From: Nitrososphaeraceae archaeon
GTDB taxonomy: Archaea > Thermoproteota > Nitrososphaeria > Nitrososphaerales > Nitrososphaeraceae
DNA: 24,369 bases
NCBI GenBank assembly: GCA_035297365.1
Contig: DATGZA010000080.1
Location: 1 to 24,369, forward strand
Direction of reading: 5' to 3'
Made by a program: the position numbers and the translations under genes. The notes under the pieces were generated by a model that was given only the letters and a program-made list of their open reading frames with translations, did no database searches and had not been told where the DNA came from. This document shows, one piece after another, positions 341-10,743 of this stretch; position 1 is the stretch's first letter; each line of letters starts with the position of its first letter.

Positions 341-2047
341 ATGGAATTAATACAGATATCTAATGTTACGAAAAAGGTTTCTACAACTAAAAAAACCATC
401 AGATATACCCAAAGTATATGTCCAGATTGTAATATGATCTTAGATGCAGAAGTATTTGAAAGGGATGGTAAAGTCTTCATGACAAAGACGTGTCAATCAC
501 ATGGTGAATGCGAAGAATTGTACTTTGGTTCTGTTGATATGTACAAAAAGTTTAGTACTTATTGGAAAGATGGTAAAGGTGCTCATGCTCCCAATGTTAT
601 GGTAGATAAATGTGCATGTCCAACAAATTGTGGATTATGTACCAATCATTTATCACATTCTGGATTATCTAACATGATAGTCACCAACAGATGTGATTTG
701 ACATGTTGGTATTGTTTCTTTTATGTAAAAAAGGGCCTTGAAGGTGCATATCTCTATGAACCTAACTATGAACAAATTAGAGCCATGATGAAAACCCTTA
801 AAGCAGAAAGACCAATAGCAGGAAATTCAATTCAAATCACTGGTGGTGAACCAATGTTACGTGATGATATAACCGAAGTAATAAAAATTATGAAGGAAGA
901 AGGAGTAGATCATGTTCAATTAAATACTAATGGTATAAAGTTAGCAATGTCTCCAGAAACAATGCGTCAGGTAAGAACAGCTGGTGTAAGCAATCTTTAC
1001 CTTTCTTTTGATGGTGTTACCCCGCGAACTAATCCTAAAAACCATTGGGAGATACCATATACTCTTGAATCTGCACGAAAGTGTGGAATGACCGTGGTTT
1101 TTGTCCCAACTGTAATAAAATCTATAAACGATCATGAATTGGGGGGAATAATTAGGTATGCTCAGAAGAACATGGATGTTGTTCATGCAGTCAACTTCCA
1201 ACCTGTATCACTGACTGGTAGAATGAACAAAAAGGAACGAGAAAAATATAGGATAACAATCCCTGATTGTATTGAACGAATCGAAGAACAAACCAATGGT
1301 GAAATTTCAATAGATTCTTGGTTCCCAGTTCCATCTTGTATGCCAATGACTGATGTAATTGAAGCATTCAGTAAAAAACCAAAATACGAGTTATCTATTC
1401 ACTTTGCTTGTGGTGCAGGTACATATGTATTCGAAGATGTCCAAACTAAAAAATTAACTCCACTAACCTCTTTTGTAGATATTAAGGGCTTATTGGAATA
1501 CTTTGAAGAAAAGGCCGACGAAATACGTTCCGGTGCTAATAGATACTGGACAACGCTAGAAGTTGTACGTAAATTAAATCAATTTGTAGATAAAACAAAG
1601 CAACCTCATGGATTGAATTTAGCAAGGATGTTTTCTAGCATATTACTAAAACGTAATTTTGATGCAGTGGGTTCATGGCATGTTAGATCACTTTTCCTTG
1701 GAATGATGCATTTCCAAGATAAATATAATGAAGATTTAGAAAGATTACAAAGATGCGATATTCATTATTTGACACCCGATCTTAGAATAGTACCTTTCTG
1801 TGCATTCAATGTTATTCCAGAGTGGTATAGAGATAGAATTCAAAAGAAATATAGTATTCCAGTCGAAGAGTGGGAAAAAGCTCACGGTCAAACGTTAGAA
1901 GCTGGACTGTATCGAGGATTAATGAGACGTGGTAAACCAGAGGCACAAATGGGTTGCGCATTATCTGAAATGCACAAGGCCGCTGCAGAAAGTGAAATAG
2001 AAGATCATAAGGCGGTAGAATTAAGAAGCGGTATGGCCGGAGCATGA
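341..2047 (+). CDS. tes: Tetraether lipid synthase / GDGT macrocyclic archaeol synthase (radical SAM, MJ0619 family)
   Basis: N-terminal CPDC...CQSHG metal site, CPTNCGLC..H cluster motif, radical SAM CxxxCxxC (CDLTCWYC), TGGEP, HFACG, GMMHFQD and C-terminal CDIHY...VPFCAFN. This arrangement is typical of Tes. Confidence 0.88.
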   Translation: MELIQISNVTKKVSTTKKTIRYTQSICPDCNMILDAEVFERDGKVFMTKTCQSHGECEELYFGSVDMYKKFSTYWKDGKGAHAPNVMVDKCACPTNCGLCTNHLSHSGLSNMIVTNRCDLTCWYCFFYVKKGLEGAYLYEPNYEQIRAMMKTLKAERPIAGNSIQITGGEPMLRDDITEVIKIMKEEGVDHVQLNTNGIKLAMSPETMRQVRTAGVSNLYLSFDGVTPRTNPKNHWEIPYTLESARKCGMTVVFVPTVIKSINDHELGGIIRYAQKNMDVVHAVNFQPVSLTGRMNKKEREKYRITIPDCIERIEEQTNGEISIDSWFPVPSCMPMTDVIEAFSKKPKYELSIHFACGAGTYVFEDVQTKKLTPLTSFVDIKGLLEYFEEKADEIRSGANRYWTTLEVVRKLNQFVDKTKQPHGLNLARMFSSILLKRNFDAVGSWHVRSLFLGMMHFQDKYNEDLERLQRCDIHYLTPDLRIVPFCAFNVIPEWYRDRIQKKYSIPVEEWEKAHGQTLEAGLYRGLMRRGKPEAQMGCALSEMHKAAAESEIEDHKAVELRSGMAGA

Positions 2048-7902: not shown

Positions 7903-8273
7903 TATATCTTTTAGAAATTAGAATATCTCTTTAATGTTATATTAAATATTCTTTTTACTATCTTTTAGATTTATATCAAAATCGAAAACTATTAGACATG
8001 TAATTCCTTATGTTACACAACTTGGACAAATGGCGACCTTGATAATATGGTGTTATTTTAGCATAGATATTTTTGTAATGGATTATTGAGATTTATGATT
8101 AGACTTGTAATAGATAAATCGATCATAAATCATATTTAAACCGTAGCAATAAATAGAATATTTTCTACACAGTCACGTGAATCTTACATAAATATTATTC
8201 TTATTTGCATATAGCATCCTCTAGATATCTGTTCCTATTTTAGAATATTTCGCAATGGATATAAAGACTCAAA

Positions 8274-8969
8274 TTGGTTCGAGAATTACATCGAAATGTG
8301 ATTATAGATAATTGTTTTTTTCCAGATGATCTTCTCTATGATATGGAAAATTTTGTCTGGGTTGATATTTCTAATAAAAACTCCATAAAGTTAGGTATAA
8401 CTCAAATAATGTCGTCTATATCTGGCAGAGTGTTCTCTGTTAAATTAAAAGAAAAAAATGTCATTATTGCAAAGGGAAAAAGTGTCGGATCAATTGAAAG
8501 TTTAAAATATTTTGGAATAATAAGATCTCCAATTTCTGGGAAAATAGAAACTGGGAATAACAGAATCATTGAAAAACCGAAATTAGTGAATGATAGTCCT
8601 TACGAACAAGGTTGGTTTGTAACAATTTATCCTACAAATTTAGAAAATGAATTAAAATATCTAAATAACGCAAACGAATGTCGTGAACAATTCAAAATAA
8701 TAATAAAAGATCTGAATGTTCGTTGTTTCAAGTATTTTCCAGACTACGAATTATATGAAATCGGATCGGAATGCGTCGCGACACTCATGAAATTAGATGA
8801 TTTGTTATTAAGAATTAAGGTTGGTGAAATAGTATATTTAGTTTCAGATGATGTGACAGCAGATATTGAGGTTGAAAGATGGTCATTGGAAAATTCCCAA
8901 TCCGTTGTTGACATCAGAAAAGAGAAAAATCTTTTTCATTTTTTGATACGAAAAGAAAAAGATATTTAA
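8274..8969 (+). CDS. Lipoyl-carrier (GcvH/LbpA-like) domain fused to a C-terminal TusA/SirA-like domain
   Basis: aa ~9-150: CFFPDDLLYD..FVW, LGIT, IESLK (lipoyl Lys78), SPISG, VNDSPYEQGW. aa ~155-231: LYEIGSEC...GEIVYLVSDD...ERW...FHFLIRK, matching the TusA pattern. The start is possibly GTG 8298. Confidence 0.8.
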   Translation: MVRELHRNVIIDNCFFPDDLLYDMENFVWVDISNKNSIKLGITQIMSSISGRVFSVKLKEKNVIIAKGKSVGSIESLKYFGIIRSPISGKIETGNNRIIEKPKLVNDSPYEQGWFVTIYPTNLENELKYLNNANECREQFKIIIKDLNVRCFKYFPDYELYEIGSECVATLMKLDDLLLRIKVGEIVYLVSDDVTADIEVERWSLENSQSVVDIRKEKNLFHFLIRKEKDI

Positions 8970-8984
8970 AACTTCTATTGTATT

Positions 8985-9827
8985 TTATTTTTCTATTGGA
9001 TTTGCTATCATATTTCCCCATTCTGTCCAAGACCCGTCATAATTCTTTACATCTTTATAACCCAACAAATGTTTTAAAACGAACCATGTATGAGATGAAC
9101 GTTCTCCTATTCTACAATATGTAATTACTTCTTTGTCCGGCGGAATTCCAGCTGATTGATATAGATTTAAAAGATCATCGGCAGATTTGAATGTTCCATC
9201 CTCGTTTACTGCCTTAGCCCATGGAATATTTACAGCACCGGGGATATGACCTCCTCTTTGTGCATGTTCAGTTGGGTATTCGGGAGGTGCAGTGATCTCA
9301 CCACTAAATTCTGCGGGACTCCTTACATCAATTCTTACAGTCTTTTCAGATTGTAAAGAGTCTTTAACCTGATTTAAAAAAGACCTTAAATTTAAGTTAG
9401 GTTCACCAGGGACTATATTTCCAATAGTAAATGTAGGAATCTCTTTTGAAATTTGTCTGTCTTCTTCTAGCCATTTTTTCCTACCTCCATTCATTATTTT
9501 AAGGTTTTTCAAACCGTAATATTCAAACACCCAAAAAGCGAAAGCAGCGAACCAATTGTTAAAATCACCGTATAAAACTAAAGTGGTATCGTCATTTATT
9601 CCAGCTTTTTGTAGCAAGTTCAAACAATCTTCCTTTGAAATAATGTTTCTTGTATCCGGATCATTGATATCATTCTTCCAATCAAATAATACAGAATTTG
9701 GTATGTGGCCAAGAAAATAATTTGTCTTTGGATCATAATCCACCTCAGCTATACGTACTTTGTCATCATTAAGGTGTTCTTCTACCCACTTTGTATCTAC
9801 AAGTACATTAGGATTAGAGTACTCCAT
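8985..9827 (-). CDS. Two-domain rhodanese / thiosulfate sulfurtransferase (CysA/SseA type)
   Basis: GHIPNSV, NGGRKKW, DVRSPAEFSG, GGHIPGA, active-site loop YCRIGERS, C-terminal YDGSWTEWG. Confidence 0.93.
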   Translation of the reverse strand: MEYSNPNVLVDTKWVEEHLNDDKVRIAEVDYDPKTNYFLGHIPNSVLFDWKNDINDPDTRNIISKEDCLNLLQKAGINDDTTLVLYGDFNNWFAAFAFWVFEYYGLKNLKIMNGGRKKWLEEDRQISKEIPTFTIGNIVPGEPNLNLRSFLNQVKDSLQSEKTVRIDVRSPAEFSGEITAPPEYPTEHAQRGGHIPGAVNIPWAKAVNEDGTFKSADDLLNLYQSAGIPPDKEVITYCRIGERSSHTWFVLKHLLGYKDVKNYDGSWTEWGNMIANPIEK

Positions 9828-9923: not shown

Positions 9924-10253
9924 ATGGATAAATTAGATTATATTTTTCAAATGCAAAAGGATCTAGAAAAATATGTTACTATTTCTAGATATCCTAAAAA
10001 ACTAGAGGATAGAATTTCAGCTTTGTCTGTAGCAATAATTCATGAAGCAGTAGAGCTTCAAAGATTAACAAATTGGAAATGGTGGAAAACACCATTAGAT
10101 TTTGATCTTAAACTTGCAAAAGAGGAATTGATAGATATACTACATTTCGTTATACAAGTTTCAATAGAACTAGGAATGAGTCCTTCCGAAATATTACAAG
10201 AATTTTCAAGAAAACATTCTGTAAATATGAAGCGACAAAAAACTAACTACTAA
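9924..10253 (+). CDS. All-alpha dimeric dUTPase / MazG-like NTP pyrophosphatase
   Basis: HEAVEL...WKWWK...EELIDILHF...K..VN..RQ..NY motifs. Confidence 0.8.
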   Translation: MDKLDYIFQMQKDLEKYVTISRYPKKLEDRISALSVAIIHEAVELQRLTNWKWWKTPLDFDLKLAKEELIDILHFVIQVSIELGMSPSEILQEFSRKHSVNMKRQKTNY

Positions 10254-10743
10254 CTACTATCGATTTTATTTTTCTAAAGTCTGTTAATCCGATTTTGTCT
10301 ATTAATTCTATTTTATTTCTAAAATTTTCGATCTGTTCTTCTGTGCAGGATAAAATAGGATATGGACCTTTAGCACCAATTATTCTCTTTTGTCTATTAA
10401 TTCCATTTTTTTTCAGAGAAATCAGAGCCTGACCTGAGAAATGTCCTCTAACGTCTTTACCACACATTAAAATAGTGTGTATTTTTTTATTTTCTTCCGT
10501 AAATTTTATGATCTGATCTATTCCTCTATTCTCCGAAAGTAGTCTCCCGACTATTGATATTTTATTCATAATTTCACGATCTTTTCCAATTTTTTCTAGT
10601 AGTTTCAAACTAGATAAAGTACAAATTGCAATATGACTCCCGTTTCCAAGAAAATACTGTTTTTTAATTGGAATTAAATAATAACAACAAATTCCAAGTA
10701 TTTTGTCGAATTCAGATCTTATTGAGGATCTTTCTTTACTCAT
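10243..10743 (-). CDS. Stand-alone MtrA-like corrinoid-binding protein
   Basis: AICTLSS, GRLLSENRGIDQII, CGKDVRGHFSGQAL (conserved cobalt-ligand His of MtrA), NGI..KRIIGAKGPYP. No C-terminal membrane anchor. Confidence 0.82.
   Translation of the reverse strand: MSKERSSIRSEFDKILGICCYYLIPIKKQYFLGNGSHIAICTLSSLKLLEKIGKDREIMNKISIVGRLLSENRGIDQIIKFTEENKKIHTILMCGKDVRGHFSGQALISLKKNGINRQKRIIGAKGPYPILSCTEEQIENFRNKIELIDKIGLTDFRKIKSIVVSS

Follow-up and report, generated by a model that had tools for sequence, protein, structure and literature searches.

A 24,369-nt stretch of the genome of a Nitrososphaeraceae archaeon (GCA_035297365.1, contig DATGZA010000080.1, positions 1-24,369 of the forward strand; hereafter the window) contains two genes that meet tail to tail. 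One encodes a fusion of a GcvH-fold domain, similar to the sulfur-trafficking protein LbpA, with a TusA-fold domain, and the other encodes a tandem-domain rhodanese. Sulfur acquisition and movement in ammonia-oxidising archaea are poorly known, and the locus raises a key question: do the two proteins work together and, if so, is sulfur carried by lipoate, as proposed for LbpA, or by cysteines?

On balance, we lean towards the second answer, a lipoate-independent, cysteine-based persulfide relay between the rhodanese and the fusion that serves sulfur assimilation or trafficking. In such a relay, the tandem rhodanese would take up sulfane sulfur as a persulfide on Cys238, with thiosulfate as the most likely donor and sulfite being released. 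Its partner chain would consist of an LbpA-type domain with Cys14 and Cys151 and a TusA-fold domain with Cys167 as the carrier. The fusion would dock on the rhodanese via the beta-hairpin that bears lipoate in GcvH and LbpA, and with the hairpin acting as a contact surface, its lysine would therefore be free to vary. Sulfur would move along the Cys14/Cys151 pair and Cys167 without lipoate, and from there it would either reach biosynthetic acceptors or be set free as sulfide with formation of a disulfide; the relay would serve assimilation or trafficking rather than the energy-yielding sulfur oxidation of the sHdr system. The observations behind this proposal are the domain identities, the conserved residues, the gene linkage, the lack of genes for lipoylation and sHdr, and a predicted complex; the chemistry itself, from the donor through the individual steps and their direction to the last acceptor, is extrapolated from the known or proposed roles of rhodanese, TusA and LbpA.

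Domains and conserved cysteines of the fusion

The features of the gene pair are listed below; residue numbers of the fusion count from the TTG at 8274, which opens an open reading frame (ORF) of 231 aa.

8274-8969, plus strand: fusion gene, LbpA-type GcvH-fold domain plus TusA-fold domain (ORF list, Pfam, AlphaFold2 (AF2), Foldseek)
8313-8315, plus strand: codon of Cys14, the equivalent of the N-terminal signature cysteine of LbpA (65/65 orthologues, alignment A5)
8337-8693, plus strand: GcvH-fold (LbpA-like) domain (PF01597, 96.1 bits in the genome search)
8499-8519, plus strand: beta-hairpin S76-L-K-Y-F-G-I82, the former lipoyl hairpin, with the Lys78 codon at 8505-8507; predicted rhodanese docking surface (alignment, complex model)
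8724-8726, plus strand: codon of Cys151, in the linker, the equivalent of the C-terminal signature cysteine of LbpA (65/65 orthologues, alignment A5)
8763-8954, plus strand: TusA-fold domain with the Cys167 codon at 8772-8774 and the His222 codon at 8937-8939 (Pfam, six-frame search, Foldseek)
8970-8984, no strand: 15-bp spacer between the convergent stop codons (sequence)
8985-9827, minus strand: tandem-domain rhodanese, 280 aa, active-site loop C238-R-I-G-E-R-S, with the Cys238 codon at 9114-9116 (ORF list, Pfam)

These coordinates agree with an earlier reading made from the sequence alone, which had described a fusion gene and a tandem rhodanese of the CRIGERS type converging with 15 bp between their stop codons. 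The GCV_H domain of the fusion was recognised by Pfam with an E-value of 4.8e-27 (residues 22-140) and is the sole GCV_H match in the window genome, which is 97.1% complete. The TusA domain (residues 164-227) scored 26.9 bits in hmmscan (E 4.4e-06) against a cut-off of 28.6 bits, and the same stretch reached 29.2 bits in the six-frame genome search. In the AF2 model of the fusion (predicted local distance difference test (pLDDT) 91.5, predicted template modelling score (pTM) 0.81), Foldseek found H-proteins at E ~1e-12 (TMt 0.85-0.93) and, for the second half, E. coli TusA (3lvj_C, E 1.8e-5, TMt 0.85), and DSSP assigned a helix to residues 167-178, which places Cys167 at the N-terminus of helix 1 of the TusA fold. 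Thus, Pfam and structure identify rhodanese, TusA-like and GcvH/LbpA-like domains, and the three carrier domains that the sequence-only reading had assigned to two genes are indeed present.

Cys14, Cys151 and Cys167 are cysteines in all 65 genome-derived orthologues, and His222 is found in 58 of them (six have Asn and one a gap); likewise, none of these four residues varies among 13 Caldarchaeales fusions. Alignment A5 comprised the fusions, plain GcvH rows, one LbpA1-like row and 13 two-cysteine single-domain proteins (about 145-158 aa). In this alignment, all of the two-cysteine proteins but P0114, which has neither residue, carry their N- and C-terminal cysteines at the positions of Cys14 and Cys151 (12/13; examples are the 145-aa P0113, with Cys7 and Cys145, and archaeal proteins of family f19), and both cysteines are missing from the plain GcvH rows and the one LbpA1-like row. 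The part of PMC6067878 drawn on here describes such a pair as specific to LbpA and absent from GcvH. According to the part of a preprint used here, the pair in LbpA2 of Thioalkalivibrio sp. K90mix consists of Cys7 and Cys145, which are disulfide-close in models and are not needed by the ligase, and its role is called open (bioRxiv 10.64898/2026.10.01.755906).

How, then, does the fusion compare with known systems? It shares with LbpA the GcvH fold, the two signature cysteines, an aromatic residue after the hairpin lysine position and the association with rhodanese- and TusA-type sulfur transferases. It differs in being covalently joined to a TusA-fold domain, in occurring in a genome without shdr genes (no CCG domain) or DsrE, in lacking a lipoate ligase in most genomes that carry it, and in its lipoyl lysine, which is present in 38 of the 65 orthologues, whereas that of LbpA is called 'strictly conserved' in the portion of the LbpA literature considered here. 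The features common to the fusion and to TusA or DsrE-TusA proteins are the two-layer alpha/beta fold, the cysteine at the N-terminus of helix 1 and a rhodanese as the likely upstream donor, but the TusA-like domain has the motif G-x-E-C-(A/S)-A-T instead of CPxP, its Pfam score lies at the threshold and it is never free-standing here. The DsrE3A-TusA of Metallosphaera is reportedly a sulfur carrier of the DsrE-TusA type. Finally, GcvH and the fusion have in common the fold, the ES-x-K hairpin (in the window copy) and a good Pfam GCV_H match; however, the fusion scores only 69-86 bits against the NCBIfam GcvH equivalogs, whose cut-offs are 116-117 (for TIGR00527, 69.1 bits with a cut-off of 115.85), and relatives with glycine cleavage carry a separate plain GcvH. 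A role in glycine cleavage was rejected because neither GcvT nor GcvP was found in the window genome.

The Cys3(+His) pattern, invariant or nearly so in three families, could instead constitute a metal or Fe-S site or a redox or sulfane-sulfur sensor, with the rhodanese as the donor of cluster sulfur or as a regulated target and with no relay to a third party; the pTM suggests a fixed domain arrangement that could gather these residues. We regard this explanation as improbable: His222 is replaced by Asn in six orthologues, two of the cysteines match the pair that is disulfide-placed, not metal-binding, in the LbpA models of the preprint as far as drawn on here (bioRxiv 10.64898/2026.10.01.755906), and Cys167 occupies the persulfide-carrying position of TusA.

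The lipoyl position and its genomic context

Another important question is whether the fusion is lipoylated, as the term 'lipoyl domain' in the sequence-only reading implied. Lys78 aligns with the lipoyl lysine of the pea H-protein. Among the 65 orthologues, position 78 is Lys in 38, Arg in 19 and Ser, Ile, Asn or Val in eight, so that a basic residue is found in 57 of 65, and Glu75 and Phe80 are each present in all 65. Switches between Lys and Arg occur even within the genus of the window (L005), the lysine position varies in the Caldarchaeales fusions too, and the 27 orthologues that are not lipoylatable at position 78 yet retain every other invariant residue. In the window genome, GcvT, GcvP, any PF03099-family enzyme and LipA were not found, the search having left aside lipoyl synthases of the LipS1/S2 type. 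The biotin protein ligase (PF03099) was likewise not found in this genome (G000); it most likely lies in an assembly gap, and the absences in this genome are therefore soft.

Relatives were surveyed in 61 Nitrososphaeraceae genomes that are at least 90% complete. These tallies and the family-wide fusion tally given below include the unpublished genomes G035, G077, G099 and G168; G035 counts among the ten plain-GcvH and the ten LplA-type genomes, and no other claim rests on unpublished genomes. The fusion type is present in 53 of the 61 genomes, plain GcvH in 10, GcvT in 10 and an LplA-type ligase in 10, the last recognised as a second, weaker PF03099 match (the weaker match was of the LplA type in 4/4 tested cases and the stronger one BirA in 2/2). 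In 43 of the 53 fusion-bearing genomes there is no match of the lipoate-ligase type, and gcvT or plain gcvH accompanies the LplA-type match in eight of the ten genomes that have one, sometimes sharing its contig. In G069, the nearest relative with an almost complete genome (99%; its fusion is 94% identical), PF03099 matched once, and this match is BirA. These data show that the Lys-bearing copy of the window shares its lipoate-free context with Lys-less copies, and with Lys78 in 38 of 65 orthologues, 43 of 53 genomes without an LplA-type match and no LipA in the window genome, lipoylation is unsupported as a property of the family. A practical warning concerns annotation: the Joint Genome Institute (JGI) labels the fusion genes 'glycine cleavage system H protein', yet GcvT is present in only 10 of the 61 genomes.

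The gcvT, plain gcvH and LplA-type genes are partly co-located (e.g., G016:C230, G062:C86 and G085:C468), and the resulting glycine-cleavage/lipoylation island, which occurs in only about 10 of the 61 genomes (G041:C20 is a further case), looks like an accessory gene set in Nitrososphaeraceae. Genome G034 has two LplA-type matches and neither GcvT nor plain GcvH; in its genus, all four sampled fusions, its own not being among them, have Arg at the lipoyl position.

Could the fusion nevertheless be a true lipoyl carrier in the Lys-bearing lineages, where dihydrolipoyl-Lys78 would swing into the rhodanese active site and accept sulfane sulfur, as proposed for LbpA in the sHdr system? Such a carrier would agree with the alignment of Lys78, here and in 38 of the 65 orthologues, with the lipoyl lysine of the pea protein, with the gaps of an assembly that lacks BirA, and with the complex model described below, in which the tip of the hairpin faces the rhodanese. 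Moreover, as discussed by Cao et al. 2018 (PMC6067878), rhodaneses are known to use dihydrolipoate as an acceptor in vitro. Nevertheless, this seems unlikely to us, considering the conservation of the remaining residues in the 27 orthologues that are not lipoylatable, the Lys/Arg switch within the genus, the lack of PF03099 and LipA matches in the window genome, the presence of BirA only in G069 and the restriction of LplA-type ligases to ten of 61 genomes, eight of them with gcvT or plain gcvH.

The rhodanese linkage and the predicted complex

The rhodanese contains two Pfam Rhodanese stretches (E 2.4e-35), and its C238-R-I-G-E-R loop, with the catalytic cysteine in the C-terminal domain, is invariant in 27 orthologues. 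Its closest solved structures are the Thermus thermophilus rhodanese 1uar (E 1.2e-101) and mycobacterial entries deposited as thiosulfate sulfurtransferases (3aax, 3hwi and 3hzu; the range is E 1e-101 to 1e-80), while the NCBIfam equivalog for 3-mercaptopyruvate sulfurtransferase was not reached (117 bits, cut-off 250). With its 280 aa, two domains and CRIGER(S) loop in the second, the protein resembles tandem-domain thiosulfate sulfurtransferases (Thermus 1uar and the mycobacterial CysA/SseA type), and we call it a putative thiosulfate sulfurtransferase after the names of these related Protein Data Bank (PDB) entries. The rhodanese itself is unremarkable; what is new is its conserved partner.

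Is the proximity of the two genes accidental? The sequence-only reading had allowed for chance linkage, given the convergent orientation. In a first set of 30 loci, mostly from the genus of the window, an adjacent and convergent rhodanese was found in 29, and in the sole miss (L028) the sequence ends 133 bp downstream of the fusion. A second set of 35 Nitrososphaeraceae loci was chosen from 14 other genera, each represented by one to eight loci. The full convergent rhodanese was present in 23 of them; L052 (G015) retains only the last 36 rhodanese residues, a C-terminal remnant, L059 is uninformative owing to a contig end, and the ten loci without rhodanese belong to the genera g3 (3/3), g16 (5/5) and g12 (2/3). 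In L045 (G111), the match to the adjacent rhodanese is split between residues 1-219 and 222-280, perhaps through a frameshift or an assembly error. Clustering of the ORFs of 36 loci with 4-kb flanks revealed the rhodanese as the only true neighbour common beyond one genus (24/36; other families no more than 8), two larger clusters being shadow ORFs opposite the two genes.

Identity to the window proteins in two Caldarchaeales families is only 21-30% for the fusion and 55-61% for the rhodanese orthologue. Here, the pair is co-directional and operon-like: the rhodanese gene immediately precedes the fusion gene, both on one strand, in 17 of 20 loci and also in 8/8 named records, with a gap of 6-25 bp in the two loci read (L121 and L123). 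The surrounding genes encode STT3, PAC2, a SIS-domain protein and a major facilitator superfamily (MFS) transporter, with no hdr or dsrE among the genes around these pairs. Adjacency is thus kept across three archaeal families and in two orientations. Comparison speaks strongly for a functional link, since the pair persists where every other neighbour changes and even where the two genes switch their relative orientation, and the linkage is not due to chance.

A physical interaction was assessed by complex prediction from our own alignments of 27 rhodaneses (A4) and 28 fusions (A1). The fusion-rhodanese complex scored 0.70 (runs 0.71, 0.68 and 0.70), and all three controls, two with an unrelated partner and one in which an unrelated protein replaced the rhodanese, failed, the best scoring 0.02. 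Contacts agree between the runs to at least 93%, and the partner pLDDT is no lower than 88. In the benchmark, 58 of 80 solved complexes and 2 of 110 mismatched pairs reached the pass mark, counts that hold only roughly here because our own alignments were supplied. No PDB entry is common to the hit lists of the two proteins, and the pass is therefore unlikely to be a recall of a solved rhodanese/H-protein complex.

The confident interface comprises residues 49, 69-70, 73, 76-82, 146-147 and 159 of the fusion and K34-T35, D88, R116-K117, L120-E121, D123 and P181-E183 of the rhodanese, of which D88, R116 and E183 are invariant among the 27 orthologues; the tip of the hairpin (77-78) lies against rhodanese residues 181-183. 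The former lipoyl hairpin is thus a predicted docking element for the rhodanese, which would account for the conservation of E75, S76, Y79, F80 and G81 around a position 78 that in most orthologues keeps only its basic character. The model supports docking in this form, not a geometry of transfer. One may tentatively go further and imagine that, with the hairpin turned into a docking surface, the LbpA-type cysteine pair and the TusA cysteine make up a self-contained, cofactor-free persulfide relay or a persulfide-resolving triad, a possibility that we consider worth stating but would not yet favour. If it held, the pair would represent a lipoate-independent branch of archaeal sulfur trafficking that provides assimilatory sulfur to soil ammonia oxidisers and hot-spring Caldarchaeales, and the fusion would be a natural experiment revealing what the conserved LbpA cysteines do.

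An inherited gene order without a functional link, in which the fusion would have different partners (a cysteine desulfurase, for example, or the canonical TusA pathway), would be compatible with a convergent arrangement that cannot yield one transcript, with a rhodanese that is a core gene also found without the fusion and with the loss of adjacency in some genera, but it is very improbable given that adjacency survives where all other neighbours have changed and where orientation is inverted between families with 21-30% fusion identity, and that the complex prediction passed while its three controls failed.

Several observations weigh against a cysteine relay with the rhodanese. The copy of the window itself retains Lys78, and its genome lacks BirA, which is present in 58 of 60 relatives; the assembly therefore has gaps where a ligase could hide. 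The TusA-like domain has no CPxP motif and falls just below the Pfam cut-off in hmmscan, and the confident interface includes none of the three fusion cysteines nor Cys238 of the rhodanese. Adjacency is missing in every sampled locus of g3 (0/3) and g16 (0/5) and in two of the three loci of g12, and rhodanese orthologues (59-73% identity) occur in 5/5 genomes that are without the fusion (G014 and G003) or have it unlinked (G002, G016 and G011). A tree of the GcvH-fold domain places the Nitrososphaeraceae fusions beside six plain GcvH (unstarred support 82/92) and not with the two-cysteine LbpA-like proteins; it was built from 39 chosen rows, and the six plain GcvH rows are those most similar to the query, which may bias the placement. 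All fusions form one clade in only 6% of the bootstrap trees, and a single fusion clade was not rejected by the approximately unbiased (AU) test (p 0.33). The tree leaves descent from LbpA unsettled, and the domain is therefore called LbpA-like by its signature and not by proven ancestry.

Distribution and wider genomic context

A word-indexed protein search returned 48 proteins; roughly 37 span nearly the full length (208-231 aa, 43-94% identity), and the four matches with an NCBI organism name are all 'Nitrososphaeraceae archaeon'. In the family of the window, 157 of 201 genomes, 91 of 114 high-quality genomes and 17 of 18 genera match; genus g14 has weak matches only, in 8 of 37 genomes. 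The sister family of the same order matches in 2 of 44 genomes, both times weakly and with single-domain size (E 1e-15 to 1e-17). Across a phylum-wide sample of 301 genomes, full-length two-domain matches were found in only two other families: f29, with a two-domain match listed in 12/12 genomes, and f10, with matches in all 12 genomes and a listed two-domain match in 11 of them. Records with f29-type fusions bear the titles Candidatus Calditenuaceae, Caldarchaeales, Nitrososphaerota or Thermoproteota archaeon, and Candidatus Caldarchaeum sp. is the name given to a relative of the f10 type. The module is therefore not peculiar to ammonia oxidisers. The A1 profile detects archaeal two-cysteine single-domain proteins at ~1e-34 and, in most other families, weaker single-domain matches of the GCV_H type at ~1e-15 to 1e-20; a profile search of 1.84 billion representatives yielded 59 proteins at E 1e-30 or better, further distant fusions (P0084, P0087, P0088 and P0090) among them.

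Regarding the wider sulfur metabolism of the window genome, the sequence-only reading had found no hdr or dsrE nearby. Neither DsrE nor a CCG domain was found in the whole-genome search, and neither is among the conserved neighbours of the pair. Membership of an sHdr system was rejected on these grounds. The original interpretation thus holds for the domains and for the lack of hdr and dsrE, and its concern about a chance linkage is answered by the conservation of the pair; a working lipoate carrier and a restriction to ammonia oxidisers are not supported. One reductase of the NIR_SIR family is encoded in the genome and could use sulfite released by the rhodanese.

A separate canonical TusA (90 bits) is encoded directly upstream of a pyridoxal phosphate (PLP)-dependent enzyme. 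The TusA ORF (1492-1734, minus strand, of L067, G000:C15:50810-54019) lies 4 bp upstream of the same-strand ORF 486-1487, whose PLP-dependent product belongs to the PALP family and looks like a cysteine synthase. The two may form a second, separate sulfur-delivery pair for cysteine synthesis. The next gene encodes an F420-0:gamma-glutamyl ligase.

The literature searched, whose scope excluded the supplements of PMC6067878 and PMC11094781, yielded no paper on an LbpA/GcvH-TusA fusion or on its partnership with a rhodanese. The fusion is natural and widely conserved, it keeps the LbpA cysteines while the lipoyl lysine varies, and it adds a TusA cysteine and an adjacent rhodanese. This combination puts the role of the conserved cysteines of LbpA within reach of a direct test on two small, soluble proteins.

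Translation of the fusion probably begins at the GTG at 8298 (223 aa) rather than at the TTG at 8274, because 23 of the 28 sequences of alignment A1 begin at the aligned M/V-I-I-D/N-x-C and because residues 1-5 have an AF2 pLDDT below 50. Upstream of it lies one further feature:

8260-8266, plus strand: TATAAAG, candidate archaeal TATA box, some 35 nt before the GTG at 8298 (sequence)

Judged by its letters, this is a possible promoter element. T-rich runs sit inside the 3' coding end of each partner gene and could act as terminators of both genes. RNA contigs from four soil libraries cover the fusion and rhodanese genes with a likeness of at least 95%, and two of them span the spacer (X15, 8896-9740, and X17, 8860-9079). 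These contigs carry no strand, transcript ends or expression level, and the uncovered stretches upstream of both genes are uninterpretable.

The pair is flanked by genes for a family-4-type uracil-DNA glycosylase (UDG; PF03167, 7339-7902, minus strand) and a dUTPase (dUTPase_2, PF08761, 9924-10253, plus strand), both of which serve uracil avoidance. Overlapping the end of the dUTPase gene by 11 bp is a gene for an MtrA-like protein (PF04208, tetrahydromethanopterin S-methyltransferase subunit A, E 7.3e-23; 10243-10743, minus strand) in a non-methanogen. In the first set of loci, the MtrA-like gene lies within 1.5 kb of the pair in 26 of 30 loci, and UDG occurs in 23 and dUTPase in six of the 30, nearly all of these loci being from the genus of the window. 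In the second set, from other genera, dUTPase was found in L043 and UDG in L036 and L038.

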